Shown piece by piece: positions 3,383 to 57,840 of a stretch of 64,000 nt of DNA. Origin of the DNA: Escherichia coli (GTDB taxonomy: Bacteria > Pseudomonadota > Gammaproteobacteria > Enterobacterales > Enterobacteriaceae). The notes below the pieces were generated by a model. The model worked only from the letters and a program-made list of their open reading frames with translations. It was not told the DNA's origin and made no database searches. Each line of letters opens with the position of its first letter. Positions within the stretch are counted from its first letter, which is position 1. The DNA is taken from NCBI RefSeq assembly GCF_050920415.1, contig NZ_CP169309.1. The stretch is one strand, 5' to 3'. Position numbers and translations under genes: made by a program.

Positions 3383-4381
3383 ATGAAAACGTTAGGTGAA
3401 TTTATTGTCGAAAAGCAGCACGAGTTTTCTCATGCTACCGGTGAGCTCACTGCTTTGCTGTCGGCAATAAAACTGGGCGCCAAGATTATCCATCGCGATA
3501 TCAACAAAGCAGGACTGGTTGATATCCTGGGTGCCAGCGGTGCTGAGAACGTGCAGGGCGAGGTTCAGCAGAAACTCGACTTGTTCGCTAATGAAAAACT
3601 GAAAGCCGCACTGAAAGCACGCGATATCGTTGCGGGCATTGCCTCTGAAGAAGAAGATGAGATTGTCGTCTTTGAAGGCTGTGAACACGCAAAATACGTG
3701 GTGCTGATGGACCCACTGGATGGCTCGTCCAACATCGATGTTAACGTCTCTGTCGGTACCATTTTCTCCATTTACCGCCGCGTTACGCCTGTTGGTACGC
3801 CGGTAACGGAAGAAGACTTCCTCCAGCCTGGTAACAAACAGGTTGCGGCAGGTTACGTGGTATACGGCTCCTCTACCATGTTGGTTTACACCACCGGATG
3901 CGGTGTTCACGCCTTTACTTACGATCCTTCGCTTGGCGTTTTCTGCCTGTGCCAGGAACGGATGCGCTTCCCGGAGAAAGGCAAAACCTACTCCATCAAC
4001 GAAGGGAACTACATTAAGTTTCCAAACGGGGTGAAGAAGTACATTAAATTCTGCCAGGAAGAAGATAAGTCTACCAACCGCCCGTATACCTCACGTTATA
4101 TCGGTTCACTGGTCGCGGATTTCCACCGTAACCTGCTGAAAGGTGGGATTTATCTCTACCCAAGCACCGCCAGCCACCCGGACGGTAAACTGCGTTTACT
4201 GTATGAGTGCAACCCGATGGCGTTCCTCGCGGAACAAGCGGGCGGTAAAGCGAGCGATGGCAAAGAGCGTATTCTGGATATCATCCCGGAAACCCTGCAC
4301 CAGCGCCGTTCGTTCTTTGTCGGCAATGACCATATGGTTGAAGATGTCGAACGCTTTATCCGTGAGTTCCCGGACGCGTAA
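3383..4381 (+). CDS. fbp: Fructose-1,6-bisphosphatase class I
   Basis: ORF track begins at 3320, but ATG 3383 ([12 protein letters not shown]...) gives the 332 aa Fbp I remember; FBPase motifs present. Confidence 0.95.
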
Positions 4382-17257: not shown

Positions 17258-18601
17258 ATGTTAAACAGTATTTTTGTCATACTCTGCTTGATCGCTGTAA
17301 GTGCGTTCTTCTCGATGTCCGAGATCTCACTTGCCGCTTCACGCAAAATCAAACTAAAACTGCTGGCTGATGAAGGCAATATAAATGCCCAACGCGTTCT
17401 GAATATGCAAGAAAATCCTGGCATGTTCTTTACCGTGGTACAAATCGGTCTTAACGCAGTGGCGATTCTCGGCGGTATTGTCGGTGATGCGGCGTTTTCT
17501 CCAGCTTTTCACAGCCTGTTCTCCCGCTATATGTCGGCGGAACTCTCTGAGCAACTGAGCTTTATTCTCTCTTTCTCGTTAGTAACTGGCATGTTTATCC
17601 TGTTTGCGGATTTAACTCCGAAACGCATCGGTATGATTGCGCCAGAAGCGGTGGCTTTGCGTATCATCAACCCGATGCGCTTCTGCCTGTACGTTTGCAC
17701 CCCGTTGGTGTGGTTCTTCAACGGCCTGGCGAACATGATCTTCCGTATCTTTAAACTGCCAATGGTACGTAAAGATGACATCACTTCTGATGACATCTAT
17801 GCAGTTGTGGAAGCAGGTGCACTGGCGGGCGTGTTACGTAAACAGGAACACGAGCTGATAGAAAACGTCTTTGAGCTGGAATCCCGTACCGTTCCGTCGT
17901 CAATGACACCGCGTGAAAACGTGATTTGGTTTGATCTCCACGAAGATGAGCAAAGTCTGAAGAATAAGGTGGCGGAACATCCGCACTCGAAATTTCTCGT
18001 CTGTAATGAAGATATTGACCACATCATCGGCTATGTCGATTCTAAAGACCTGCTGAACCGCGTGCTGGCTAACCAAAGCCTGGCACTGAACAGCGGCGTA
18101 CAAATTCGCAACACACTGATTGTGCCGGATACATTAACCCTTTCAGAGGCATTGGAAAGTTTTAAAACTGCGGGTGAAGACTTCGCGGTGATCATGAACG
18201 AGTACGCGCTGGTCGTTGGGATCATCACCCTCAACGACGTAATGACCACACTAATGGGCGATCTGGTCGGTCAGGGACTGGAAGAGCAGATTGTCGCCCG
18301 TGATGAGAACTCATGGTTGATTGATGGCGGCACCCCGATTGACGACGTAATGCGTGTGCTGGATATTGATGAGTTCCCGCAGTCAGGCAACTACGAAACC
18401 ATCGGCGGCTTTATGATGTTTATGCTGCGTAAAATCCCGAAACGCACCGACTCGGTGAAATTCGCCGGCTACAAATTTGAAGTGGTGGATATCGATAACT
18501 ACCGCATCGACCAGTTGCTGGTAACGCGGATCGACAGCAAGGCCACCGCCCTTTCGCCCAAACTGCCTGACGTTAAAGATAAAGAAGAAAACGTCGCGTA
18601 A
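17258..18601 (+). CDS. ytfL: Inner-membrane CNNM/CorC-family protein (DUF21-CBS-CorC) YtfL
   Basis: 447 aa ORF with N-terminal TM helices followed by a soluble C-terminal region. Confidence 0.93.
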   Translation: MLNSIFVILCLIAVSAFFSMSEISLAASRKIKLKLLADEGNINAQRVLNMQENPGMFFTVVQIGLNAVAILGGIVGDAAFSPAFHSLFSRYMSAELSEQLSFILSFSLVTGMFILFADLTPKRIGMIAPEAVALRIINPMRFCLYVCTPLVWFFNGLANMIFRIFKLPMVRKDDITSDDIYAVVEAGALAGVLRKQEHELIENVFELESRTVPSSMTPRENVIWFDLHEDEQSLKNKVAEHPHSKFLVCNEDIDHIIGYVDSKDLLNRVLANQSLALNSGVQIRNTLIVPDTLTLSEALESFKTAGEDFAVIMNEYALVVGIITLNDVMTTLMGDLVGQGLEEQIVARDENSWLIDGGTPIDDVMRVLDIDEFPQSGNYETIGGFMMFMLRKIPKRTDSVKFAGYKFEVVDIDNYRIDQLLVTRIDSKATALSPKLPDVKDKEENVA

Positions 18602-18616
18602 CCCCAAGAAACATCA

Positions 18617-18647
18617 ACGGCTCCTGAATCAGGAGCCGTCTTATTTA
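18617..18647 (+). terminator. Rho-independent terminator of ytfL
   Basis: ACGGCTCCTGA-A-TCAGGAGCCGT perfect hairpin followed by CTTATTT. Confidence 0.8.
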
Positions 18648-18663
18648 CTGCATAGCACTTTGG

Positions 18664-18870
18664 TTAAGCCATCTCTGTTTGCAGACGCATAACCTGACGG
18701 TTAACTTCGGACATCACTGACAAATGCAGCTTATCCTTCACTTTTGGGATAAGAATCTTACCCTTATCAAATTCAAAAGCGCCAACGTCCTTGATGTATA
18801 ACCGTCCACGGAACAGGATCTTTACGTACTTCGCCACCTGCAGTGGGTTGTACCGTTGGAAAATTTTCAT
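18664..18870 (-). CDS. ytfK: Small DUF1107 protein YtfK
   Basis: Start set to ATG 18868-18870 ([20 protein letters not shown]..., 68 aa) rather than the ORF-track extension. Confidence 0.88.
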
Positions 18871-19195
18871 TGTTATCTCCTGCTGAGTATTACGCCTTTG
18901 CGGTGCCACAATCGGCCCAACTATTATGAGGCGCAAATTTTAATGCTTAGTGACTATAGACTATCCGGGTAATGTTTCCACCGCGTATAACTTTTTTTAC
19001 CTAAAGGTTACAATTATTCAGAATTATCTTTTTACCGAAGCGCGGTCTTCAGTATAAGCATTCATTTTTCATATGATTTGTGCGCTTGACCGCAAACTGG
19101 CATCACACTTGCGGGAAATTCGATAAATAGCACATATGATTAAAATTCAGACCCCAAGTGGTCGGATCACCTGCATATCATAAGAAGGATACACC

Positions 19196-19750
19196 ATGAC
19201 CCTACGTAAGATTCTGGCACTCACCTGCCTGCTGTTGCCGATGATGGCTTCCGCACATCAGTTTGAAACCGGTCAACGAGTGCCACCGATAGGCATTACC
19301 GATCGGGGCGAGTTGGTGCTTGATAAAGATCAGTTTAGCTACAAAACCTGGAACAGCGCGCAGTTAGTGGGAAAAGTGCGAGTACTGCAACATATTGCTG
19401 GTCGCACCTCTGCAAAAGAGAAAAACGCGACGCTGATTGAAGCGATTAAATCAGCAAAGTTACCGCACGATCGTTACCAGACCACCACCATTGTGAACAC
19501 CGACGACGCGATTCCGGGTTCTGGCATGTTTGTGCGCAGCAGTCTGGAGAGTAATAAAAAGCTTTATCCCTGGTCGCAGTTTATTGTCGATAGCAATGGC
19601 ATCGCGCGCGGTGCCTGGCAGCTAGATGAAGAAAGTTCCGCTGTAGCGGTGCTGGACAAAGACGGTCGAGTGCAATGGGCCAAAGACGGTGCGCTCACTC
19701 AGGAAGAGGTGCAGCAAGTGATGAACCTGCTGCAAAAGTTGCTCAAATAA
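19196..19750 (+). CDS. ytfJ: Periplasmic protein YtfJ
   Basis: 184 aa ORF with signal peptide MTLRKILALTCLLLPMMASA; AAGGAT Shine-Dalgarno. Confidence 0.92.
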   Translation: MTLRKILALTCLLLPMMASAHQFETGQRVPPIGITDRGELVLDKDQFSYKTWNSAQLVGKVRVLQHIAGRTSAKEKNATLIEAIKSAKLPHDRYQTTTIVNTDDAIPGSGMFVRSSLESNKKLYPWSQFIVDSNGIARGAWQLDEESSAVAVLDKDGRVQWAKDGALTQEEVQQVMNLLQKLLK

Positions 19751-19783
19751 TGTTAATAACATAAATTCTGGAAAAATAAATTT

Positions 19784-19810
19784 CCCCTATCGATATATAT
19801 GGGATAGGGG
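19784..19810. terminator. Hairpin terminator between convergent ytfJ and ytfI
   Basis: CCCCTATC-loop-GATAGGGG stem with an A/T-rich tract on the minus-strand side. Confidence 0.6.
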
Positions 19811-19850
19811 AATTAAGTCTCTGAGTTTTTACGCCGAACTCATACTAGTA

Positions 19851-20774
19851 TCAATAACCCTTATTCGCGTTTAACGGTTTTACCTCTTTTTTAAACGCTT
19901 CAATGGTAGATTTATATTTCTTGTGAATCTTGTCTTCGGTATAATTACCGTTTGCGGCCAGATTTGCACTTACAATCGCTTCCACTTGCTCGGTTATTTC
20001 CACTTGTTGGTAACCTGCATTAACCAGAAAATTATAAATAAGAGAGTAATCTTCACCCTGCAAAAAAATATAAGAGCCAGTTCGAAGTTCCTCATCCCCT
20101 CCATAGATTTTAAGAGCAAAGCCCAAAGATTCTATGACCATGGCATAATTTCCATTATTTATTTTCTCGCAAAAATACCATCCTTCACATTCTTTAATGC
20201 TACCTCCTGGCCCTTCAAGTTCAAATTTACCCCGTTTTAATTTGCTTACTACATTCTCCAAATAAGCAGAATCGTAAGATAAGTTACCCGCCGCCTTCCG
20301 AAAATAACCGTTAATCCTTTCAGGTATGTCAGACTGTTTTTTCTGCAAAATATCATAGGCATACAATCTTCTATTTTGTGCTAGTGGAAATTCACGGTTT
20401 TTAAAGTCTATAAATGAGTTATACTCATTTATTGTTATAGGGATTTCTTCGTATTCAAATCCAGTGCCTCGCAATGTCATTGTATATTCGGCACCGTTAT
20501 CTTTAAGGCGGAAGCTGATAAGAAAATTATCCATGGAGTGAACGGTTTCATCTTTTAATGAAAGCACCTGATAACTATTTTTATCGATCTGTGTTGCTCT
20601 AAGAAAGAACTCCCTTAAAATTAACAGACTATCATAATTCGAAATCCAATCCCTTTTCTTAAATGCATGCTGAATATTATTAAAGAAATTATTTGAATGT
20701 ATTTTTGTATGCGATGACTTTACAAATAACTCCACTGCACCAAAAAAATTATTGTGTCTAATCTTGGGTAACAT
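19851..20774 (-). CDS. ytfI: Uncharacterized protein YtfI (AT-rich gene)
   Basis: 307 aa ORF, markedly AT-rich, flanked by AT-rich intergenic DNA; no recognisable domain. Confidence 0.8.
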   Translation of the reverse strand: MLPKIRHNNFFGAVELFVKSSHTKIHSNNFFNNIQHAFKKRDWISNYDSLLILREFFLRATQIDKNSYQVLSLKDETVHSMDNFLISFRLKDNGAEYTMTLRGTGFEYEEIPITINEYNSFIDFKNREFPLAQNRRLYAYDILQKKQSDIPERINGYFRKAAGNLSYDSAYLENVVSKLKRGKFELEGPGGSIKECEGWYFCEKINNGNYAMVIESLGFALKIYGGDEELRTGSYIFLQGEDYSLIYNFLVNAGYQQVEITEQVEAIVSANLAANGNYTEDKIHKKYKSTIEAFKKEVKPLNANKGY

Positions 20775-20986
20775 ATGACAACCTTATTATATTTGGTTAT
20801 TCTATGTCGCCATTAAATATCTTGTTAAAGAAGTAAACTATCAAAAAATGCTCATTATTAAGATATAACTCATTAGCGTTAGAATATTTACACTTTAAAT
20901 ACAATCCCTTTATATCTATAACTTTTTAGGTTGGAAACAAATCAGGATGGCAGAATCAGGAAATACACTGTTTCTGCCATATATAT

Positions 20987-21727
20987 TTAATAAATAGAGA
21001 CTCTGAACCCAGGATTCAGGAACGACTCGCGCGGGGTATAATCCAGCGGTTTACCCTGCCAGTCGTGAACGTGCGCTCCGGCCGCTGCCGCAACTGCGTG
21101 ACCGGCGGCGGTGTCCCAAATATTGGTTGGCCCGAAACGCGGGTAAAGCTGCGCCTGCCCTTCCGCCACCAGGCAGAATTTCAGCGAAGAGCCGATAGAC
21201 GTGGTTTGATGTTCGCCAAGCTGTTGCAGATACTCTTTCAGCTCCGCATCCGCATGGGAACGGCTGATCACCACCAGCGGCGGGCGCGCATCGCGGACCT
21301 GAATCTGCTTGCGTACACCGCACTCTTCTTTCCAGGCTTTGCCGTCTGCCGCGCTGTACATTACGTTCATTACCGGCGCATACACCACACCTAAAATCGG
21401 TTTGCCGTGGTCGATGAGCGCAATATTAACGGTGAATTCACCATTACGTTTAATAAACTCTTTAGTACCATCCAGCGGGTCTACCAGCCAGTAACGCTGC
21501 CAGTGTTGACGGACTTCCCAACCGGGAGGATCTTCTTCAGAAAGGACCGGAATATCCGGTGTCAGCGTACGTAAACCGTCCATGATAACGGTGTGTGCGG
21601 CAATATCCGCTGCCGTTACCGGAGAATTGTCCGCTTTGCTGACGACGTCCATCGGTTTCGTCCCGTCGTAGACCTGCATAATGGCATCGCCTGCATTCCG
21701 TGCAAGCTGGCATACTTGATCTAACAT
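20987..21727 (-). CDS. cysQ: 3'(2'),5'-bisphosphate nucleotidase
   Basis: 246 aa [23 protein letters not shown]...; inositol-monophosphatase-family motifs (DPLDGT, WDTAAG). Confidence 0.95.
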
Positions 21728-29542: not shown

Positions 29543-29759
29543 CGTATTTCCTTTCTTAGGGTATAAAGTAGCGGGCAGCATATCAGCCACACTTCTTTGG
29601 GTAAAACTTTGTCGCGGGAATGATGACAAATCCCGGGGAAAAAGAAACAATAGCAATATCCCGTATGAATATAATAAAGGCGGGTTTACCACGGACATCA
29701 TAGCGTTAGCTTATTCATAGGCTATGATTGAGGAACAAGACGCGGAGCAGGAGGAAACC

Positions 29760-30398
29760 ATGCCCGGGCGCTTTGAACTAAAACCAACCCTGGAGAAAGT
29801 CTGGCACGCGCCGGACAATTTTCGCTTCATGGACCCGCTACCGCCGATGCATCGTCGGGGGATCATTATTGCCGCTATTGTATTGGTGGTCGGATTTCTA
29901 CTCCCGTCGGATGATACGCCAAACGCGCCGGTGGTGACGCGTGAAGCACAGTTAGATATTCAGTCGCAATCACAACCGCCGACAGAAGAACAGCTGCGGG
30001 CGCAATTAGTCACACCACAAAATGATCCTGATCAGGTGGCTCCGGTCGCTCCAGAACCGATACAGGAAGGCCAACCGGAAGAGCAGCCGCAAACCTCGCA
30101 AGTGCAACCTTTCCAGCCAGATAGCGGAATTGACAATCAATGGCGCTCTTATCGTGTCGAACCCGGTAAAACAATGGCGCAGCTGTTCCGCGACCACGGA
30201 CTGCCCGCTACCGATGTCTATGCAATGGCGCAGGTAGAAGGCGCGGATAAGCCACTGAGTAATTTGCAAAATGGGCAGATGGTGAAAATCCGCCAGAACG
30301 CCAGCGGCGTGGTGACGGGCTTAACCATTGATACGGGAAATAATCAACAGGTTCTGTTTACCCGCCAGCCGGATGGCAGTTTTATTCGCGCGCGGTAG
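29760..30398 (+). CDS. ytfB: OapA-domain cell-division/envelope protein YtfB
   Basis: GAGGAA Shine-Dalgarno then ATG 29760 ([19 protein letters not shown]..., 212 aa); TM anchor and Pro/Gln-rich linker. Confidence 0.9.
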
Positions 30399-31029
30399 AT
30401 GAAGGGTCAACCAGAAGCCAGCTAAGGATCGTCTCTTTGATGACCTTACGCCTGGCTTCCAGTGCCTGCGGTGAAACCATACTGATGTGATAAACCAGGC
30501 CAAGCGTATGTTGGTTGATCAAATAATATCCTCCAAGAGCAGCAATATTAATATTCACCTGCAACGGGTCGATATCTGGCTTAAAAATATTGCGCCGTTT
30601 GCCTTCAGCTAATAATGACTCCATTAACTGTAAGTGTGCGTGGTTAATTTCTAAAAGGCGCTGTGATTTTGCATAATGCACCCCTTTACTCTGGTTTTCA
30701 CTATGCACAATTTTTAAAAACCAGGGGTTAGCAATGTAATAATCCCAGGTGAAATCGATAATTTTCTCAATGGCTTTTTGTGGCGGAAGACCTGAGAAAT
30801 CAAGGGATTTTTCTTTTTGCCGAATATCATTCCAGGTATATTCCAGCACTTCGATAAATAAATTTTCTTTATTACCAAAGTGATGATAAACCGTCTGTTT
30901 ACTGCACTCCGCGGCCTTGACGATATTATCGACTCTGGCCCCTTCGTAACCATATTCGGCAAATTCATTAACCGCACATAACAACAGCTTTTCCTTCAGG
31001 CTTTGTACGTTGCTGGTATCAAGATACAT
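30382..31029 (-). CDS. TetR/AcrR-family transcriptional regulator (islet regulator)
   Basis: ORF track start 31089 is GTG; ATG 31027-31029 gives [58 protein letters not shown] (TetR N-terminal HTH), 215 aa. Divergent from the downstream operon; 3' end overlaps the ytfB 3' end by 17 bp. Confidence 0.85.
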
Positions 31030-31151
31030 TCCGCTTCCCCACGTCTTCTTCGTGATGACTATCTTAACCCGATTTGTTAGAAGCTCCACTAAAATGGCTA
31101 AAAACTCGCAATTTCATCGGGTTATCAAATGCTCTGTGATCATTATCGCAT

Positions 31152-31173
31152 ATCAACCAACTAGATGGTTGAT
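31152..31173. promoter_or_regulatory. Candidate TetR operator (22 bp palindrome) in the islet divergent promoter
   Basis: ATCAACCA-ACTAGA-TGGTTGAT: perfect 8 bp inverted arms with a 6 bp spacer, between the regulator start (31029) and the operon start (31241). Confidence 0.4.
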
Positions 31174-31240
31174 CTTTCTTGCCACACATTGCAAGCTAAT
31201 CGTCACTTAAGGAAATAATATTCAAAAAGAGGGTTATTGT

Positions 31241-32032
31241 ATGAAGTCAACACGTCCTGTTGCTGTCATCACTGGAGCCGCACGTGGTATTGGAAAGGGC
31301 TGTGCACTGGAACTTGCGCGTGGCGGATTTAATCTGCTGATTAATGATCGTCCGGATGCCGACAGCGTAGAAAAATTACATGCCACACAACAAGAATGTC
31401 TGGCGGAAGGCGTGGAAGTGATTTGCTTCCCTGCTGATGTTGGCGATCTCTCCCTTCATGAAGAGATGCTCGACGCGGCGCAAAACCAGTGGGGACGTCT
31501 GGACTGTCTACTCAACAACGCAGGCATTTCAGTGAAAAAACGCGGTGACCTCCTCGACCTCGAACCAGACAGCTTCGACCAAAACATTGCCATTAACACC
31601 CGTGCGCCGTTCTTCCTTGCTCAGGCATTCAGTAAGCGATTACTGGCACAGCCGAAACCGGAAGCAGAACTGCCGCACCGCTCGATTATTTTTGTCAGTT
31701 CCATAAACGCCATCATGCTGGCGATGAATCGCGGCGAATATACCATTGCAAAAACTGCCGTCTCCGCCGCAGCTCGTCTGTTTGCCGCTCGCCTTTGCAA
31801 TGAACAAATTGGCGTTTATGAAGTGCGCCCTGGCCTAATCAAAACCGATATGACCATTCCGGCAACGGCTTATTACGACGAACTGATTGCTAAGGGGTTA
31901 GTGCCGTGGGGACGTTGGGGTTATCCGGCTGATATTGCCTCAACGGTCCGCGCGATGGCGGAAGGCAAACTGATTTACACCTGTGGTCAGGCGGTCGCCA
32001 TCGACGGCGGCTTAAGTATGCCGCGCTTCTGA
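31241..32032 (+). CDS. Short-chain dehydrogenase/reductase (SDR) family oxidoreductase
   Basis: 263 aa ORF; TGAARGIG cofactor-binding motif, NNAG, and catalytic Y-x3-K (EYTIAK); AGAGGG Shine-Dalgarno. Confidence 0.85.
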   Translation: MKSTRPVAVITGAARGIGKGCALELARGGFNLLINDRPDADSVEKLHATQQECLAEGVEVICFPADVGDLSLHEEMLDAAQNQWGRLDCLLNNAGISVKKRGDLLDLEPDSFDQNIAINTRAPFFLAQAFSKRLLAQPKPEAELPHRSIIFVSSINAIMLAMNRGEYTIAKTAVSAAARLFAARLCNEQIGVYEVRPGLIKTDMTIPATAYYDELIAKGLVPWGRWGYPADIASTVRAMAEGKLIYTCGQAVAIDGGLSMPRF

Positions 32033-32041
32033 GGCTGAATC

Positions 32042-32884
32042 ATGAGAGATCTGTTACAACGCCCGGATTTATTCAGTATCAATACTGCGACACTGGGCTA
32101 TAAAACGCCGCTACCTGCCATTATTGATGCCTGCGCCGCACGCGGTATTGGCGCGATTGCCCCCTGGCGCAGGGAGTTGCAGGGTGAAGATCTCCAGCAA
32201 ATCGCCCGCCAGCTTGCTGCCAGTAACATGAGCGTTTCCGGTTTGTGTCGTAGCACCTATTACACCGCGCCGACGCTGACGGAACGCAAACTGGCGATTG
32301 ATGATAACCGCCGGGCGCTGGACGACGCCGCTGTACTGAACGCCGCCTGTTATATGCAGGTGGTTGGCGGTCTGCCAATGGGAACAAAAGATCTGTACGA
32401 AGCACGGGAACAGGTGAAACAAGGGATTCGCCAGTTGCTGCCACATTCGAAAGAGGTCGGCGTGCCAATTGCACTGGAGCCACTGCACCCGATGACTGCT
32501 GCCGATCGTTCTTGTCTGTGCACATTACGTCAGGCGCTGGACTGGTGTGATGAACTCGATCCCGATGGCGAATTTGGCCTCGGCGTGGCGGTAGATGTCT
32601 ACCATGTCTGGTGGGACCCGGATCTCGCCAGTCAGATCCTGCGTGCCGGAAAACGCATCCTCGCGTTTCATGTTTCCGACTGGCTGGTGCCAACCACCGA
32701 TTTAGTCAATGATCGGGGAATGCCGGGAGATGGCGTCATTAATATTCCCTCTATTCGTCGGCTGGTTGAAAACGCCGGATTTAATGGCGCTATTGAACTG
32801 GAAATATTCTCGCCGTACTGGTGGCAGAAAGATATTAACAGCACGCTGGATATTAGCGTCGATCGCATCGCGCATTATTGCTAA
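32042..32884 (+). CDS. Sugar-phosphate isomerase/epimerase-like TIM-barrel enzyme (xylose-isomerase-like fold)
   Basis: 280 aa ORF with the LEP / FHVSD signature pattern typical of this fold; 9 nt downstream of the SDR stop. Confidence 0.7.
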   Translation: MRDLLQRPDLFSINTATLGYKTPLPAIIDACAARGIGAIAPWRRELQGEDLQQIARQLAASNMSVSGLCRSTYYTAPTLTERKLAIDDNRRALDDAAVLNAACYMQVVGGLPMGTKDLYEAREQVKQGIRQLLPHSKEVGVPIALEPLHPMTAADRSCLCTLRQALDWCDELDPDGEFGLGVAVDVYHVWWDPDLASQILRAGKRILAFHVSDWLVPTTDLVNDRGMPGDGVINIPSIRRLVENAGFNGAIELEIFSPYWWQKDINSTLDISVDRIAHYC

Positions 32885-32893
32885 GGAATGATC

Positions 32894-33670
32894 ATGAGTG
32901 ACCAACCCGTTCTGTTCAGCAGAGCGGCGGCTTCCTGCCGCCTGACATTGAACCGTGAAGATAAATGTCATGCTATTAATGAAGAAATGATCGAATCTCT
33001 CGACCATTATTTAAATGAAATTGAAAACGACACCACATTACGATTAGTCGAATTAACGGCAACCGGCGATAAATTCTTTTGTGCGGGCGGCGATATTAAA
33101 TCGTGGTCAGCCTATTCGCCATTAGATATGGGCAGAAAATGGATTAAACGCGGCAATGACGTTTTTAATCGCCTGCGCAATTTACCTCAATTAACGGTTG
33201 CGAATCTCAACGGTCATACTATCGGCGGTGGTATTGAACTTGCCTTGTGCTGCGATATTCGTATTGCCCGCCCCAGTGCGAAATTCTCTAATCCGGAAGT
33301 AATGCTCGGCATGGTGCCTGGCTGGATGGGCATTGAACGCGTGCTTAATCAGGTCGGTCCGGTGGTCGGTCGCCAGATGCTGATGCTGGGTAAACGCCTG
33401 ACGGCGCAGGAAGCTCAGGCGGCGAATTTAATTGATGAAGTGGTAGAAAAAGAACAGGTGGAAAGCTGGATGGCGAATCAGTTAGCGCAGCTGGAAAAAT
33501 GCGGTCCGGTGGCGCTCGCACATATCAAGCAACTGATTCTGGCTCTAGAAAATAAACATGCTGATTACCCGCACCAGTTACTGGCTGGATTAATGTCCGC
33601 CACTCAGGATTGCCAGCAGGCGACGCGCGCATTTGCCGAAAAAAGTAGCGTGAGCTTCCAAAATCAATAA
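32894..33670 (+). CDS. Enoyl-CoA hydratase/isomerase (crotonase) family protein
   Basis: Crotonase hallmarks FFCAGGDIKSW and GHTIGGGIELALCCDIRIA; ATG 32894 is preferred over 32888 on Shine-Dalgarno spacing. Confidence 0.85.
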   Translation: MSDQPVLFSRAAASCRLTLNREDKCHAINEEMIESLDHYLNEIENDTTLRLVELTATGDKFFCAGGDIKSWSAYSPLDMGRKWIKRGNDVFNRLRNLPQLTVANLNGHTIGGGIELALCCDIRIARPSAKFSNPEVMLGMVPGWMGIERVLNQVGPVVGRQMLMLGKRLTAQEAQAANLIDEVVEKEQVESWMANQLAQLEKCGPVALAHIKQLILALENKHADYPHQLLAGLMSATQDCQQATRAFAEKSSVSFQNQ

Positions 33671-33679
33671 GGAAATTGT

Positions 33680-35221
33680 ATGCGTAAGATAACAACCGCC
33701 GAGACACTGGCGGCGCAAATTCAGGACGGCGCAACCATTGCCATTAGCGGTAATGGCGGCGGCATGGTGGAAGCGGACCATATTCTGGCTGCTATTGAAG
33801 CGCGTTTCCTGCAAACCGGACACCCGCGCGATCTGACATTAATCCACTCGCTGGGCATTGGCGATCGCGACTGCAAAGGCACTAACCGCTTCGCTCATGC
33901 AGATATGCTCAAACGCATCATTGCCGGACATTTTACCTGGTCGCCCAAGATGCAGGATCTGGTGAAAAACAATGCTATTGAAGCCTACTGCTTCCCTGGT
34001 GGCGTAATTCAGGCACTGCTGCGGGAGATCGGTGCCGGACGTCCAGGGCTTTTTACCCACGTTGGACTGGGATCGTTTGTTGATCCGCGCAACGGCGGCG
34101 GTAAGTCGAACGCCAGCACCACTGAGGATCTGGTAGAACTGATTGAAATCGACGGTGAAACCAAACTTCGTTATCGCCCTTTCAAAGTGGATTACGCGAT
34201 TTTGCGTGGCACTTATGCTGATCCGCGTGGCAACGTCAGCCTCGAAGAAGAGGCGATTGATATGGATAGCTATTCCATGGCGCTGGCAGCACACAACAGC
34301 GGCGGCAAAGTGTTCGTACAGGTGCGCGATGTGCTGGAAGCTGGTGCCATTGAACCACGCCGGGTCAAATTACCGGGCATTCTGGTTGATGGCATCGTTG
34401 AACACCGCGAACAACCACAAACCTATCTTGGCGGTTACGATCTGACCATTAGCGGTCAGCATCGCCGTCTAAGTTCTAACGACGCAATTGAACTGGTTAG
34501 TCATCCGGTGCGCCGCCTGATTGCCCGTCGGGCAGCACGCGAACTGGTAGCTGGCGCTTCAACCAACTTTGGCTTTGGCATTCCCGGCGGCATTCCTGGG
34601 GTTGCACTGCGCGAAGGCGTGCCTTATCAAAGTTTATGGCTGAGCGTCGAGCAAGGCGTGCATAACGGTATGATGCTGGATGATGCTCTGTTCGGCTGCG
34701 CCCGTAACGCCGATGCCATTATTCCATCACTCGATCAATTCGAATTCTACAGTGGCGGAGGGATCGATATCACCTTCCTCGGCATGGGAGAGATGGATCA
34801 GCATGGTAACGTCAACGTCTCCCATCTCAATGGCAATCTCATTGGCCCCGGCGGATTTCTCGAAATTGCGCAAAACGCCCGTAAAGTGGTGTTCTGTGGC
34901 ACGTTCGACGCCAAAGGTAGCAAGATTGATGTAACACCAGATGGCTTGCATATCGCCCAGTCAGGTCAAATCCCTAAACTGGTTACCCAGGTGGAAAAAA
35001 TCACTTTTAGCGCCGCCTACGCACAGCAAAGCGGTCAGGAAGTGTTGTATATCACTGAACGTGCAGTATTCCAGTTAACGGCAGAAGGCGTTGAATTAAT
35101 TGAAATCGCGCCGGGTGTGGAGATTGAACGCGACATTCTGCCGCATATGGCTTTCCGTCCAATTATCAATCAGCCACGCCTGATGGAAAGTAGCCTGTTT
35201 ACGCCGATGGAGGATGCATGA
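33680..35221 (+). CDS. Fused family-I CoA-transferase (acyl-CoA:acetate/3-ketoacid CoA-transferase-like)
   Basis: 513 aa ORF about the size of fused alpha/beta family-I CoA-transferases, with glycine-rich loops (ISGNGGG, SGGGIDITFLGMGE); AAGGA Shine-Dalgarno. Confidence 0.7.
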   Translation: MRKITTAETLAAQIQDGATIAISGNGGGMVEADHILAAIEARFLQTGHPRDLTLIHSLGIGDRDCKGTNRFAHADMLKRIIAGHFTWSPKMQDLVKNNAIEAYCFPGGVIQALLREIGAGRPGLFTHVGLGSFVDPRNGGGKSNASTTEDLVELIEIDGETKLRYRPFKVDYAILRGTYADPRGNVSLEEEAIDMDSYSMALAAHNSGGKVFVQVRDVLEAGAIEPRRVKLPGILVDGIVEHREQPQTYLGGYDLTISGQHRRLSSNDAIELVSHPVRRLIARRAARELVAGASTNFGFGIPGGIPGVALREGVPYQSLWLSVEQGVHNGMMLDDALFGCARNADAIIPSLDQFEFYSGGGIDITFLGMGEMDQHGNVNVSHLNGNLIGPGGFLEIAQNARKVVFCGTFDAKGSKIDVTPDGLHIAQSGQIPKLVTQVEKITFSAAYAQQSGQEVLYITERAVFQLTAEGVELIEIAPGVEIERDILPHMAFRPIINQPRLMESSLFTPMEDA

Positions 35222-37299
35222 GTCAGCTTGATGACACCCTCCTTGATGCGCTGACGCACGTCACTTTCCCGAAGGGTTTTGTGTCAGCAGAGCCAGCGTC
35301 AATTGTCACGGTTGAAGATGTCGATTACCCGATCTGGCAAGTTGATGCGCTAGTCGTTGGTAGCGGCGCGGCAGGGCTGCGCGCAGCGGTTGAACTTAAG
35401 CGCCGCCAGCAAAATGTGCTGATCGCCACCGCCGGGTTATATATGGGGACATCGGCATGTTCTGGTTCCGATAAACAGACGCTGTTTACCGCCGCTACCG
35501 CGGGCAACGGCGATAACTTCGCTAAACTGGCGGAAGCACTGGCGAGCGGTGGGGCGATGGATCACGACACCGCTTATGTCGAAGCGGTAGGTTCTCTGCA
35601 CACTCTTGGCGGGTTGCAATATCTTGGTCTGGAATTACCGGAAGATCGCTATGGCGCAATTCTTCGTTATCAAACCGACCATGACGAAGCCGGGCGAGCA
35701 ACCTCGTGTGGGCCGCGTACTTCTCGCCTAATGGTGAAAGTATTGCTGGAGGAAGTGCAGCGTCTTGCCATACCACTACTGACCAGTGCAACGGTGATTA
35801 AGCTCCTGCATCAGCACGGAGAGAATGGCGAAGATCGCGTTGCGGGGGCTATTCTCGCAACCGGTTCCCGCGCCTATAACCCTTGGGGGCTGGCTATTGT
35901 GACGGCGCCCAATGTGGTACTGGCAACGGGCGGACCGGGCGAGCTTTATCGCGACAGTGTTTATCCACATAAATGCTTCGGCTCGCTGGGGCTGGCGCTG
36001 GAAGAAGGTCTGACGCTAACCAATCTGACCGAAAGCCAGTTTGGTATAGGCACGCCGCGCAGCACGTTTCCGTGGAATTTGTCCGGCACCTATGTACAGG
36101 TGATCCCATATATCTATTCCGTGGATGCCGGGGGCAACGAGTATAACTTCCTCGCAGATTACTATCGCACCACCCAGGAGCTGGCTTCAAACATCTTCCG
36201 TAAAGGCTATCAGTGGCCGTTTCACGCCACACGAGTGATGGATTTTGGCTCCAGCTTGTTAGATATGGCAGTAGCGCAAGAGCAGCAATCAGGGCGTCAG
36301 GTATTTATGGATTTCAATCGCAATCCTGAACCTGTGCCGGGTGACCTGCCGTTCTCATTAGATCGACTGGACGACGACGTTCGCGCGTATCTGGAAAATA
36401 ACGACGCTCTGGCACCATCGCCCATCGAACGACTGCAACGAATGAATCCGCTGTCTATCTCGCTGTATAAGATGCACGGTTACGATCTCACCACGCAGCC
36501 ATTGCAGTTTGCCATGAATAATCAGCATATGAATGGCGGCATTGAAGTGGATATCTGGGGGCAAACCTCCCTGTCCGGCTGTTTCGCCGTGGGGGAAGTT
36601 GCTGGCACACACGGCGTCACTCGCCCTGGTGGTGCGGCATTGAATGCCGGGCAGGTTTTTGCTGTTCGTCTGGCACGTTTTATTGGTTGCACGCAAAAGC
36701 GGTCCGTTGAGGATGATGTCGCGCAGCTAGTAGCCTCACCTCTGCATACAATCAGAGAAGTTATCGCTCAGGCACTGGCAAACGAGAACGGAATGACGCT
36801 GGCAACGGTAAAAGAAAAAATCCAGGCGCGAATGTCTGATTACGCGGGATTTATTTGCCATGCTGATAAAGTTCGTCACGCCGCCCGTGACGCCATGCTG
36901 TTAAATGAATTTGCGCAGCAACATGGTCTAACTATCAACCACGCCGGTGAAATTGCCGAGCTATTTATGTGGCGGCATATGGCATTAACATCCGCTGCGG
37001 TGTTAAGCCAGCTATCACATTATATTGATGCTGGCGGTGGTAGTCGTGGAGCGCGGATGATTATTGATCCACAAGGAGAATATCTTCCACAAACTCGTCG
37101 CGGCGCAATCGAAGATTGGCGTTTTCGCTCTGAACAAGCTGAAGATAAAAATCACAGACTAACTCTCTCCTTTTCACAAGGTTTATTTATTAATGAAATT
37201 AAGTTCTTGAGAAACTTACCGCATATTAAAGGTATTTACTTTGAGAAGAATTGGCCTGATTTTCTTAACGGAACAATTTATCAGACACGGCATGAATAA
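35218..37299 (+). CDS. FAD-binding flavoprotein of the fumarate reductase / succinate dehydrogenase / L-aspartate oxidase superfamily
   Basis: 693 aa ORF; N-terminal dinucleotide-binding motif DALVVGSGAAGLRAAVEL; ATG overlaps the CoA-transferase stop (ATGA); the last ~300 nt are AT-rich. Confidence 0.75.
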   Translation: MSQLDDTLLDALTHVTFPKGFVSAEPASIVTVEDVDYPIWQVDALVVGSGAAGLRAAVELKRRQQNVLIATAGLYMGTSACSGSDKQTLFTAATAGNGDNFAKLAEALASGGAMDHDTAYVEAVGSLHTLGGLQYLGLELPEDRYGAILRYQTDHDEAGRATSCGPRTSRLMVKVLLEEVQRLAIPLLTSATVIKLLHQHGENGEDRVAGAILATGSRAYNPWGLAIVTAPNVVLATGGPGELYRDSVYPHKCFGSLGLALEEGLTLTNLTESQFGIGTPRSTFPWNLSGTYVQVIPYIYSVDAGGNEYNFLADYYRTTQELASNIFRKGYQWPFHATRVMDFGSSLLDMAVAQEQQSGRQVFMDFNRNPEPVPGDLPFSLDRLDDDVRAYLENNDALAPSPIERLQRMNPLSISLYKMHGYDLTTQPLQFAMNNQHMNGGIEVDIWGQTSLSGCFAVGEVAGTHGVTRPGGAALNAGQVFAVRLARFIGCTQKRSVEDDVAQLVASPLHTIREVIAQALANENGMTLATVKEKIQARMSDYAGFICHADKVRHAARDAMLLNEFAQQHGLTINHAGEIAELFMWRHMALTSAAVLSQLSHYIDAGGGSRGARMIIDPQGEYLPQTRRGAIEDWRFRSEQAEDKNHRLTLSFSQGLFINEIKFLRNLPHIKGIYFEKNWPDFLNGTIYQTRHE

Positions 37300-37319
37300 T
37301 ATTGCAAAGGTTAATCACT

Positions 37320-37796
37320 ATGCGAAATATAATCAGATCTATTAATTCATTGCTTTCCACATTGAACATTACCATTTTGGCAATTATTGTGATGTGCGTT
37401 ACATGGCAAGTAGTAGCACGATTTATCTTTAAAAGCCCCAGCATTTTTACAGATGAACTTAGTCGTTTACTATTTATTTGTCTTGGACTTTTTGGTGGTG
37501 CTTATACTGCCGGACAAAACCGACATCTGGCCATTGATCTTCTGCCAATGATGCTAAAAGGAAAATCCCGACGTTATTTATTCTTATGTATTCAGGCCAT
37601 TGTTATTCTTTTTGCCTCTATCATTATGGTTTATGGTGGCGGGTTATTAACACTGGACACATTTGATTCAGGGCAAACTTCTCCGGCTTTAGGCTGGCAG
37701 ATGGGATATATTTACATGAGCATTCCAATAAGTGGCATCCTTATTATTATATACACCATAGATACAGTTTTAACCGAACTTAAACAACCACTCTAA
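37320..37796 (+). CDS. TRAP transporter small permease (DctQ-like)
   Basis: ORF track start 37302 is TTG; ATG 37320 with AAGG Shine-Dalgarno gives a ~158 aa four-TM protein; strongly AT-rich. Confidence 0.8.
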   Translation: MRNIIRSINSLLSTLNITILAIIVMCVTWQVVARFIFKSPSIFTDELSRLLFICLGLFGGAYTAGQNRHLAIDLLPMMLKGKSRRYLFLCIQAIVILFASIIMVYGGGLLTLDTFDSGQTSPALGWQMGYIYMSIPISGILIIIYTIDTVLTELKQPL

Positions 37797-37818
37797 AATA
37801 AGTAGGGATGGAGAAAAC

Positions 37819-39120
37819 ATGGATTACTGGTTACCGATCATTGTGTTATTTGGTGCTTTCTTTTTTATGTTGGCATTAGGTGTTCCTATTGTCTATGCTA
37901 TTGGTTTATCAACACTGGCATCAATTACTACACAACTCGATTTCAACTCAGCGTTAAGTGTGGTTTCCCAAAAGTTAGCCTCCGGGTTAGATAGTTTTAC
38001 GTTGTTGGCAATCCCATTTTTTATTTTGTCTGGCAACATTATGAATCACGGAGGAATAGCGCGACGATTAATCAACTTTGCCCGAATTCTCGGCGGTCGT
38101 CTGCCAGGCTCACTTGCCCACTGTAATATTCTTGCCAATATGCTGTTCGGGGCAATTTCTGGTTCAGCCGTGGCTTCGGCGGCTGCGATGGGCGGCGTCA
38201 TGCATCCGCAACAGGTTAAAGAGGGCTACGACCCGGCATTCAGTACTGCAGTTAACGTTGCCTCTGCCCCGACGGGTTTGCTTATTCCACCCAGTAATAC
38301 GTTAATCGTCTATTCACTGGTCAGTGGTGGTACTTCTATTGCCGCACTGTTCCTGGCAGGATATGTCCCGGGAATTTTATTGGGCCTGGCGCTGATGACT
38401 GTGGCTGGTATTATCGCGGTACGCCGGGGTTATCCAAAACCAGAACGTCCGACTTTGCGCCAGGCTGGAGTGGCAATATGGATGGCGATCCCCAGTATTT
38501 TCCTGATTGTATTAATTATGGGTGGTGTACTAAGCGGTATTTTTACCCCGACAGAAGCATCTGCAATTGCGGTAATTTATACCCTTTTCCTTGCACTGGT
38601 TCTTTATCGTGAAATATCAGTTAAAGATTTACCTAAGATATTTCTGGAGTCCGTCATTACCACTGCAATTGTCTTGTTGTTAATTGGTTCTTCAATGGGA
38701 ATGTCATGGGCAATGTCAAACGCTGACGTTCCCTTCCTGATTCTCGATTTGCTTAACACTATTTCTGACAATCCAATAATCATCCTGCTTATTATCAATA
38801 TTATCCTGTTGATTATCGGCACATTTATGGATATGACACCGGCAGTACTGATTTTTACGCCGATATTTTTACCCGTTGTCACCGAACTGGGTATGGACCC
38901 GATTCACTTTGGTATTGTCATGGTACTGAACATGTGTATCGGTATTTGTACTCCGCCTGTAGGCAGTGTGTTATTTGTCGGTTGTAGTGTATCTAAATTA
39001 CCGATTAATAAAATTATCAAACCTATGCTGCCATTCTATGCCGTGATGGTATTGGTGCTGGCAATGGTTACCTATATTCCGCAAATCAGTATGGCATTGC
39101 CAAGAGCACTGGGCTACTGA
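37819..39120 (+). CDS. TRAP transporter large permease (DctM-like)
   Basis: 433 aa polytopic membrane ORF MDYWLPIIVLFGAFFFMLALGVPIVYAIGL...; AT-rich. Confidence 0.88.
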   Translation: MDYWLPIIVLFGAFFFMLALGVPIVYAIGLSTLASITTQLDFNSALSVVSQKLASGLDSFTLLAIPFFILSGNIMNHGGIARRLINFARILGGRLPGSLAHCNILANMLFGAISGSAVASAAAMGGVMHPQQVKEGYDPAFSTAVNVASAPTGLLIPPSNTLIVYSLVSGGTSIAALFLAGYVPGILLGLALMTVAGIIAVRRGYPKPERPTLRQAGVAIWMAIPSIFLIVLIMGGVLSGIFTPTEASAIAVIYTLFLALVLYREISVKDLPKIFLESVITTAIVLLLIGSSMGMSWAMSNADVPFLILDLLNTISDNPIIILLIINIILLIIGTFMDMTPAVLIFTPIFLPVVTELGMDPIHFGIVMVLNMCIGICTPPVGSVLFVGCSVSKLPINKIIKPMLPFYAVMVLVLAMVTYIPQISMALPRALGY

Positions 39121-39172
39121 TATGCATTAACTGGCGGCACCTGCCGCCATATTTATTAGAAAAGGAACATCT

Positions 39173-40144
39173 ATGAAAATAAAAGTATCCGCTGGCATTA
39201 TCGGTGCTGTTCTTATGCTATCCGCAAGCCAGTCCTGGGCAGTAACATTAAAACTTAGCCATAATCAGGATAAATCTCATCCTGTTCATAAAGCGATGGA
39301 GTTCTTTGCGAAAAAGAGCAAAGAGTACTCTAACGGTGATATTACTATTCGTATTTATCCAAATGGAACATTGGGTACTCAACGAGAAACAATGGAGCTG
39401 ATTCGTTCTGGTGCTATTCCGCTGGTAAAAACCAATGCGGCGGAGATGGAAGCCTTCGAGAGTTCGTATAAAATATTTAGCCTGCCTTATTTGTTCCGCG
39501 ATCGTGATCATTATTATCAGGTCATGCAAGGCGATATCGGAAGGAAAATCCTCGACTCAACGAAAAGCAAAGGTTATTTCGGGCTGACTTTCTATGATGG
39601 AGGCGCCCGCAGTTTCTACGGTAATAAACCGGTACTGAAACCAGACGATCTGAAAGGCATGAAAGTCCGTGTCCAGCCAAGTCCTGGCGCAGTTGAAATG
39701 ATCAAAGTCATGGGCGGTAACCCGACGCCACTGGATTACGGCGAGCTGTATACGGCCTTACAGCAGGGCGTGGTCGATATGGCAGAAAACAGCGTGATGG
39801 CACTGACCACTATGCGTCACGGTGAAGTGGCAAAATCCTTTAGCCTTGATGAGCACACCATGGTGCCCGATGTGGTTCTGATGAGTAATGCTGCATTTGA
39901 TAAACTCAGCCCTGAAAATCAGGCAGTTATATTAAAAGCAGCGAAAGAATCGATGAGTTACATGAAGGAGTTATGGAGCGAGCAAGAGAAACAAGAATTT
40001 GCAAAACTGGATAAAATGGGCGTAAAAGTCTACCCGGTTGATAAAGCACCGTTTATCGAGAAAGTACAACCGATGTACGCAAACTTCGCTAAAGATAACC
40101 CTGCCCTTGCCCCAATGCTGGCTGATATTCAGGCGGCTAAGTAA
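39173..40144 (+). CDS. TRAP transporter periplasmic solute-binding protein (DctP-like)
   Basis: 323 aa ORF with signal peptide MKIKVSAGIIGAVLMLSASQSWA; last gene of the operon. Confidence 0.88.
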   Translation: MKIKVSAGIIGAVLMLSASQSWAVTLKLSHNQDKSHPVHKAMEFFAKKSKEYSNGDITIRIYPNGTLGTQRETMELIRSGAIPLVKTNAAEMEAFESSYKIFSLPYLFRDRDHYYQVMQGDIGRKILDSTKSKGYFGLTFYDGGARSFYGNKPVLKPDDLKGMKVRVQPSPGAVEMIKVMGGNPTPLDYGELYTALQQGVVDMAENSVMALTTMRHGEVAKSFSLDEHTMVPDVVLMSNAAFDKLSPENQAVILKAAKESMSYMKELWSEQEKQEFAKLDKMGVKVYPVDKAPFIEKVQPMYANFAKDNPALAPMLADIQAAK

Positions 40145-57807: not shown

Positions 57808-57840
57808 CAAAAAAAAACCATCCAAATATGGATGGTTTTT
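57808..57840. terminator. Bidirectional hairpin terminator after rlmB
   Basis: AACCATCCA-AATA-TGGATGGTT perfect stem flanked by A9 upstream and T5 downstream; a T-run follows on the minus strand after the rlmB stop. Confidence 0.85.

Follow-up and report, generated by a model that had tools for sequence, protein, structure and literature searches.

A conserved palindrome as the likely operator of a YtfA-type TetR-family repressor in an Escherichia coli catabolic islet

Here we describe a 20-bp dyad, TCAACCAACTAGATGGTTGA, which is likely to be the operator of the adjacent TetR-family repressor and appears, on sequence comparison, to lie inside the promoter of the divergently transcribed operon. 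The site was found in a 64-kb stretch of an Escherichia coli chromosome, which we refer to as the window, meaning the whole of the DNA that was analysed. We establish that the site exists, that it is in statistical excess over chance, that it is conserved and that it co-occurs with the lineage of the regulator.

Results

The regulator gene starts with an ATG at 31029 on the minus strand and the operon with an ATG at 31241, leaving a spacer of 211 bp (31030–31240) between them. Both ATG positions agree with the RefSeq annotation of an identical strain, which confirms the intergenic gap proposed in a first-pass annotation of this DNA. The regulator gene (30382–31029, minus strand) encodes a 215-residue protein of the ytfA type, with matches to the Pfam families PF00440 (HTH, E = 2e-13) and PF17938 (TetR_C_29, E = 2.8e-30) that both lie above the Pfam cut-offs, and its relatives in the PDB belong to the TetR family without exception. 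It corresponds to ytfA and is an intact form of the K-12 pseudogene: ytfA has been described as a TetR-family gene that is variably present across E. coli (PMC6790063), and the K-12 copy is listed as a pseudogene in a CRISPRi screen. Our literature search on the ytfA regulator returned nothing on its targets, binding or ligand release; a search on PF17938 returned one Burkholderia paper, which holds no operator data, and a text search combining the operator 9-mer with 'TetR' gave irrelevant primer hits only.

The target operon (31241–40144, plus strand) was delimited from annotation, Pfam matches and orthologous gene order. It encodes a short-chain dehydrogenase/reductase (SDR), a xylose-isomerase-like TIM barrel, an enoyl-CoA hydratase, a CoA transferase, a 693-residue FAD flavoprotein and the small, large and binding subunits of a TRAP transporter. 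In the identical strain the gene order is ytfB, the TetR/AcrR regulator (minus strand), the divergent operon and then rplI, with the SDR annotated as a 3-ketoacyl-ACP reductase and the TIM barrel as a member of the sugar-phosphate isomerase/epimerase family, followed by the enoyl-CoA hydratase, the CoA transferase, an FAD oxidoreductase and three TRAP transporter genes. Pfam confirms the enzyme families of the operon. Within 31241–37299 the hydratase is a crotonase, the CoA transferase is of family I, its nearest named model, FadX, scoring below cut-off, and the 693-residue flavoprotein is fumarate-reductase-like. Comparison of this enzyme set (31241–37299) with NCBIfam gave no specific assignment, so that the pathway and substrate of the operon appear uncharacterised.

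Strains differ at the 3′ end of the islet (37300–40144 of the window; compare 18353–21536 of locus L003). The three TRAP transporter genes are found there in the window and in strain AR_0128, and in ATCC 25922 their place is taken by an MFS transporter gene and, after it, a HipA-family toxin gene with a frameshift and an HTH gene. Elsewhere in the window, a 307-residue open reading frame annotated as 'hypothetical protein' (19851–20774, minus strand) lies between ytfJ and cysQ and is also present in the identical strain; since ytfJ and cysQ abut in AR_0128 and ATCC 25922, it represents a strain-specific insertion.

The palindrome, our candidate TetR operator on grounds of symmetry and conservation, occupies 31152–31173 (ATCAACCAACTAGATGGTTGAT), with a conserved 20-bp core at 31153–31172 whose dyad axis falls between 31162 and 31163. 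It had been described as a perfect 22-bp palindrome; the coordinates are correct, but the 22-mer differs from its reverse complement at two positions (31160 and 31165) and is thus symmetric at 20 of 22. As the A at 31160 opposes an A at 31165, ten of the eleven pairs match, and the perfect portions are the 8-bp arms ATCAACCA and TGGTTGAT together with the central CTAG. This symmetry is beyond chance: ten of eleven pairs were reached by 0.1% of Markov shuffles of the 211-bp spacer (P about 0.001), and the 64-kb window contains just two such 22-mers, the operator candidate and one at 57816. Under a looser criterion, in which the arms need only be 8 bp or longer and may stand up to 10 bp apart, the shuffle P value is 0.036 and 28 such pairs occur in the window. 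The second 22-mer (57816–57837, AAAAACCATCCAAATATGGATGGTTTTT) lies between two minus-strand open reading frames, and its hairpin looks like an ordinary bidirectional intrinsic terminator.

Searching the 64-kb window at up to three mismatches gave no more copies of the operator, and no site of the embedded 14-mer type described below was detected there besides the operator candidate. Exact copies of the 9-mer TCAACCAAC occur in coding DNA at 30510–30518 (minus strand), within the regulator gene, and at 34559–34567 (plus strand), within the CoA-transferase gene. Neither has an inverted partner and the chance expectation is about 0.5 copies per 64 kb; we judged these two solitary 9-mers to be due to chance.

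We compared an 881-bp query, spanning the regulator gene and the spacer, with 5426 complete E. coli genomes. The query matched 5125 of them, only 18 at an identity of at least 99%, and the spacer was found in 3133 (about 58%). Nearly all E. coli spacer alleles are 78–86% identical to that of the window. Relative to the common alleles, the flanking genes are 92–96% identical, compared with 80–85% for the spacer, a divergence close to the silent-site rate that makes the spacer suited to footprinting. We aligned nine E. coli alleles and then 14 sequences including Escherichia whittamii, Escherichia albertii and Klebsiella spallanzanii. In the 14-sequence alignment, 17 of the 20 columns of the core (31153–31172) are invariant versus 45% across the spacer (hypergeometric P = 1.5e-4), and the spacer's two longest stretches without variation, 31163–31171 and 31154–31161, both fall here. 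Within the core, variation is confined to the outermost bases and to 31162, where alleles have either T or C. The palindrome is therefore the best-conserved block of a fast-diverging spacer.

From ytfB to the operon (29724–37299) the window is only 85–96% identical to common E. coli alleles, with ytfB itself at 90%, its spacer allele is found in about 18 of the 5426 complete genomes, and the SDR protein is identical between very different alleles. These observations suggest that the 29724–37299 haplotype is old or was imported.

Orthologues of the regulator were sought by scanning species-representative genomes with the protein, complemented by a protein search. The genome scan identified E. 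whittamii, E. albertii, K. spallanzanii (90% identity) and Entomohabitans (81%), and to these the protein search contributed Salmonella (87%) and Leminorella (82%), along with metagenomic relatives at 66% and 59%. The first four genes of the operon (SDR, TIM barrel, hydratase and CoA transferase) keep the same order, divergent from the regulator, at all orthologous loci. Each locus carries AACCAAC-N4-TGGTTG once only, and invariably in the spacer that parts the regulator from the SDR gene. This holds for E. whittamii, E. albertii, Klebsiella spallanzanii, Salmonella, Leminorella, Entomohabitans and two metagenomic contigs, at regulator identities of 59–97%. Conservation at orthologous loci had been put forward as a test of the palindrome; when run, it found the palindrome in every operon-linked locus examined, its 20-bp length and dyad axis unchanged down to 59% regulator identity, with the cross-genus consensus T[C/T/A]AACCAAC[T/C]A[G/T][A/T]TGGTTG[A/T]. 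In Entomohabitans (locus L016, about 3660–3970), an extra stretch of some 290 bp, rich in G+C, lies between the regulator gene and the CRP-like site and operator, and the portion from the operator to the SDR gene is unchanged.

The next-closest homologues of the regulator, at 32–39% identity, come from Alphaproteobacteria, among them Ferrovibrio, Oceanibaculum, Tistrella, Belnapia and a Xanthobacteraceae genome. Their neighbouring genes, which include an NMT1-type binding protein, an ABC permease, an amidase and an epimerase, are unrelated to the islet operon. Palindromes containing TCAACCAAC, of the TCAACCAACyrGTTGA type, nevertheless lie directly upstream and/or downstream of the TetR gene in these genomes. 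We counted 13 exact copies of the 9-mer in 102 kb from 12 alphaproteobacterial loci, each beside the TetR gene, and none in 441 kb from 58 control loci carrying other TetR subfamilies. Since the motif tracks homologous regulators into unrelated loci, we assign the site to the adjacent regulator and not to another factor. In a protein alignment, the recognition-helix residues K44 and Y48-H49-H50-F51-G52-N53-K54-E55 are invariant down to 32% identity, while the ligand-binding domain diverges. Such co-occurrence of helix and motif is the pattern expected if the recognition helix reads this DNA word. Conservation within the spacer, the orthologous loci and the related motif beside homologues that share the recognition helix together support the original suggestion that the palindrome is a TetR-family operator.

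Upstream of the operator lies a CRP-like site (31135–31150, TGTGA-TCATTA-TCGCA), which matches the CRP consensus core, TGTGA-N6-TCACA, at nine of ten positions. Among the E. coli alleles and Klebsiella, four of the five positions of each half-site are invariant, against two of six in the N6 spacer. GTGA-N6-TCAC or a near match is found in E. coli, Klebsiella, Salmonella, Leminorella and Entomohabitans, the halves in other genera reading GGTGA/TCACA, AGTGA/TCACA, TGTGA/TCACA and CGTGA/TCACG, and the site is weaker in two metagenomic loci, where one half-site is degraded. Across ten lineages, it stands at a fixed distance of 19–20 bp, centre to centre, upstream of the operator.

The right arm of the operator shares 4 bp with a candidate −35 hexamer of the operon promoter, TTGATC (31169–31174, plus strand), which is identical in nine of the ten lineages and reads TTGTTC in the remaining one. 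In all ten, exactly 17 bp of variable sequence separate this hexamer from a candidate −10 recognised through the cross-genus comparison, CAAGCT in the window (31192–31197, plus strand) and CATTTT, CATCTT or CATCGT elsewhere, with CA[A/T]nnT as the shared pattern. A spacer conserved in length and not in sequence is the behaviour of a −35/−10 pair, and we therefore predict a transcription start near 31204. The candidate E. coli −10 is weak, matching at A2 and T6 only, which would explain why a sigma-70 consensus scan of 30950–31320 called no promoter; a weak −10 is usual in activator-dependent promoters. The operon promoter is probably CRP-dependent, with the CRP-like site at about −61.5 counted from the predicted start near 31204, and from the ten-lineage comparison we infer that the operator overlaps the core promoter of the operon. 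In an alternative class II arrangement, with a start near 31184, the operator would still fall within the polymerase footprint. FNR (TTGAT-N4-ATCAA) and IHF consensus matches, inspected by eye, were set aside for wrong orientation or spacing. A minus-strand promoter using TTGATA in the left arm of the operator was rejected as well, there being no acceptable −10 at 16–18 bp. An Rfam scan of 30900–31400 at E values up to 1 gave no match, so no known riboswitch or sRNA is present.

For the regulator's own promoter, the candidate −10 is TAAGAT at 31061–31066 (minus strand), which is kept across lineages: a −10-like hexamer (TAAGAT, TATGAT, TATAAT or TATAGT) lies 30–50 nt upstream of the regulator ATG in every one of them (E. 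coli, Klebsiella, Salmonella, Leminorella, Entomohabitans and two metagenomic loci). The predicted tetR start, near 31054, is about 108 bp from the operator centre, which makes autoregulation by occlusion unlikely. Autoregulation through the palindrome, raised in the first-pass annotation alongside control of the operon, is thus left unsupported, though not refuted.

A second inverted repeat had been pointed out in the spacer as another possible regulatory element, and its exact 9-bp arms are indeed present 42 bp apart, TAACCCGAT at 31065–31073 and ATCGGGTTA at 31116–31124; a functional role does not follow, since the pairing is not maintained. Complementarity is 9/9 in four of the 14 sequences (the window, ATCC 25922, MRY15-117 and E. 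whittamii), 6–8/9 in nine and 4/9 in Klebsiella, and is absent in Leminorella and the metagenomic loci. A 9-bp inverted pair 11–100 bp apart arises in about 5% of shuffles (P about 0.05), which is weakly significant. Five of the nine columns of the left arm are invariant, close to the 45% spacer background, and the overlap of this arm with the conserved −10-like hexamer, the candidate tetR −10, explains its partial conservation. In the right arm, GTTA(TCAAAT) alone is conserved, and among the E. coli alleles the conserved arm bases are only the outer TAAC/GTTA. The pairing of the arms is probably due to chance.

We consider it improbable that the arms form a second functional element, whether as a distal autoregulatory operator pair or as a stem in the 5′ part of the regulator mRNA. 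They are exact in the window, their outer TAAC/GTTA is conserved in E. coli alleles, and one compensatory double change distinguishes the window (CCCGA/TCGGG) from ATCC 25922, MRY15-117 and E. whittamii (CCTGA/TCAGG). Against this stand the borderline shuffle value, complementarity that is broken in most lineages, a sequence unlike the operator motif and conservation equal to background; moreover, a tetR start near 31054 would leave the arms outside the tetR mRNA. We accordingly rejected the arms as a conserved structure, the single compensatory pair notwithstanding.

A separate element at 31119–31130 (GGTTATCAAAT), about 17 bp upstream of the CRP-like site, is conserved over the E. coli alleles and partly in Salmonella and Klebsiella (GGTTATTAA and AGTTATTAA), and accounts for the conserved half of the right arm.

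Two half-site spacings are found among these operators. The enterobacterial operon-linked sites have the form TCAACCA-N6-TGGTTGA (7-N6-7), 4 bp longer in the middle than most alphaproteobacterial sites, which are 16 bp long (TCAACCA-N2-TGGTTGA, 7-N2-7); Belnapia has a long-type site upstream and a short-type site downstream of its TetR gene. With half-sites 4 bp closer in the alphaproteobacterial form, the enterobacterial site could not be bound by one dimer in identical geometry. The long form also contains a tandem CAAC-CAAC, so that a short-spaced 14-mer is embedded in it, the two registers being offset by 4 bp. In the window this 14-mer, a possible alternative or second register, is CAACTAGATGGTTG (31158–31171; CAACCAGATGGTTG in many E. 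coli alleles), with the same 6-N2-6 spacing as the short sites near distant homologues; it is perfect when 31162 is C and matches at 5/6 in the window allele.

On sequence grounds, the operator could therefore be read by one dimer in the embedded register, by one complex over the full dyad or by two offset dimers. It is possible, although we hold it to be unlikely, that the functional operator is the embedded 14–16-bp site at 31157–31172 (CCAAC[C/T]AGATGGTTGA), a 7-N2-7 site with its dyad at 31164.5, the extra TCAA on the left being either incidental or a third half-site that serves a second, offset dimer. TCAACCA-N2-TGGTTGA flanks the TetR gene in Ferrovibrio, Oceanibaculum, Tistrella, Belnapia and Xanthobacteraceae, and Belnapia has both a short site and an E. 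coli-like long one, presumably for the same protein; in addition, the C at 31162 of many E. coli alleles yields a perfect CAACCA-GA-TGGTTG, and one strain has a perfect 16-mer. Yet a T at 31162 weakens the inner half-site in the window, in Salmonella, Klebsiella and Leminorella and in both metagenomic loci; conservation of the outer left half-site (31153–31159) and of the 20-bp dyad axis extends down to 59% regulator identity. Somewhat more tentatively still, the long operator might be composed of three half-sites, occupied either by a pair of offset dimers, each on its own face of the helix, or by a single dimer able to choose between registers. Three half-sites would give cooperative, switch-like control, which short sites would not have. 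The pairing of two half-site spacings with one nearly invariant recognition helix appears to be the most unusual aspect of the system.

In the metagenomic locus with the regulator at 59% identity (L091), a short-type-like sequence, TTCAACCGACTGGTGA, follows the regulator's −10-like hexamer at about 2960–2980, ahead of the ATG. This sequence, which has no E. coli counterpart, might serve as an operator for autoregulation.

Discussion

From the arrangement of these elements we infer binding, promoter positions, the direction of regulation, a ligand and the number of dimers, as follows. The candidate CRP site would be centred at 31142.5, about −61.5 from the start, as in class I promoters. The operator, centred at 31162.5, would span about −51 to −32, with its right arm sharing four bases with the −35 hexamer TTGATC. 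A bound repressor would block the contacts of sigma region 4 and the alpha-CTD, switching the operon off, until it is released by a ligand, for which the transported substrate and a CoA-thioester intermediate are plausible candidates; cAMP-CRP would also be needed for full expression of the operon.

Other explanations of the palindrome have to account for the same conservation. That it acts as an RNA hairpin, namely a plus-strand intrinsic terminator or attenuator with a stem formed by 31152–31159 and 31166–31173 and a T-rich tail, strikes us as very improbable. A terminator scan does flag an 8-bp stem with a 6-nt loop and the tail CTTTCTTGCC, the predicted free energy of the hairpin is −9 kcal/mol, and many alleles have a better T-run (TCTTTTTAT). 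However, only three of the eight stem pairs are G-C and the T-run is interrupted; no plus-strand unit ends here, as the gene upstream is the minus-strand regulator gene; and it is the arm sequence itself that is conserved, without compensatory changes. The T-run is missing in Entomohabitans, there is no Rfam match, and the related short sites, with their 2-nt spacer, cannot form a hairpin. We therefore rejected a Rho-independent terminator, the stem not being G+C-rich, the T-run interrupted and no plus-strand gene lying upstream.

There is likewise little chance, if slightly more, that another transcription factor binds the palindrome, or that its conservation is due to the −35 element only, with the TetR protein acting elsewhere. 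The candidate −35 TTGATC does lie within the right arm, and the link between the TetR protein and the site rests on sequence comparison. A −35 element nevertheless accounts for 6 bp and not for a conserved 20-bp dyad, and the 9-mer stands beside homologous TetR genes whose neighbours differ but is absent from the 441 kb around other TetR genes. An operator of the adjacent repressor, read over the 20-bp dyad, is thus the explanation that we prefer.

The palindrome is very probably a previously undescribed example of a well-known type of switch, as judged from its sequence and setting, and no current concept of gene regulation is challenged by it. Its interest lies in the islet. About 58% of complete E. 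coli genomes carry it, as do some Salmonella, Klebsiella, Leminorella and related lineages, and neither its YtfA regulator nor its CoA-dependent catabolic pathway had been characterised before. The operator, the predicted CRP-dependent promoter and the pairing of repressor and target provide an experimental handle: a reporter could be used to find the inducer, and hence the substrate of the pathway, and the parts could make up a TetR-type switch that is compact and perhaps orthogonal. For TetR_C_29 relatives with the same helix, the motif offers a recognition rule.

Several known systems resemble this one in part. RutR of E. coli is likewise a TetR-family protein whose gene is divergent from a catabolic operon, and its box has the consensus TTGACCAnnTGGTCAA, a 16-bp 7-N2-7 dyad (PMC2475637). 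The alphaproteobacterial short sites (TCAACCAnnTGGTTGA) share this architecture and the same ACCAnnTGGT centre, whereas the window dyad has ACCA-N6-TGGT, with N2 only in the embedded, imperfect register at 31158–31171. The outer bases also differ, being TTG/CAA in the RutR box and TCA/TGA in the window site, and the window regulator belongs to the TetR_C_29 subfamily, with RutR matching it over the HTH only (E about 1e-5).

The operator of the window (20–22 bp) exceeds the length of a single-dimer site and contains a repeated half-site (CAAC-CAAC ... GTTG) with two overlapping 14–16-bp registers, which recalls QacR IR1. Like some other TetR-family operators, IR1 is bound by two offset dimers. 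QacR is also among the nearest solved HTH matches to the regulator (E about 6e-8), but IR1 is 28 bp long and its sequence is unrelated to the window operator.

In the TetR/tetO and AcrR type of system, as in the islet, the regulator gene is divergent from its target and a palindromic operator lies in the shared spacer, over core promoter elements that in the islet are predicted; release by a ligand is presumed to apply to the window regulator as well. The tetA/tetR operators, however, overlap both divergent promoters and so allow autoregulation, whereas the window has a single site about 108 bp from the likely regulator start, and its target promoter, unlike that of tetA/tetR, appears to be CRP-dependent. 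In this last respect, the islet resembles class I CRP promoters with an intervening repressor site. A CRP-like site about 61.5 bp upstream of the predicted start, departing from the consensus in the TCGCA of one half and with positions that rest on that start, is here too separated from the candidate −35 by a putative repressor site, an arrangement whose logic would be expression when a specific inducer is present and glucose is absent.
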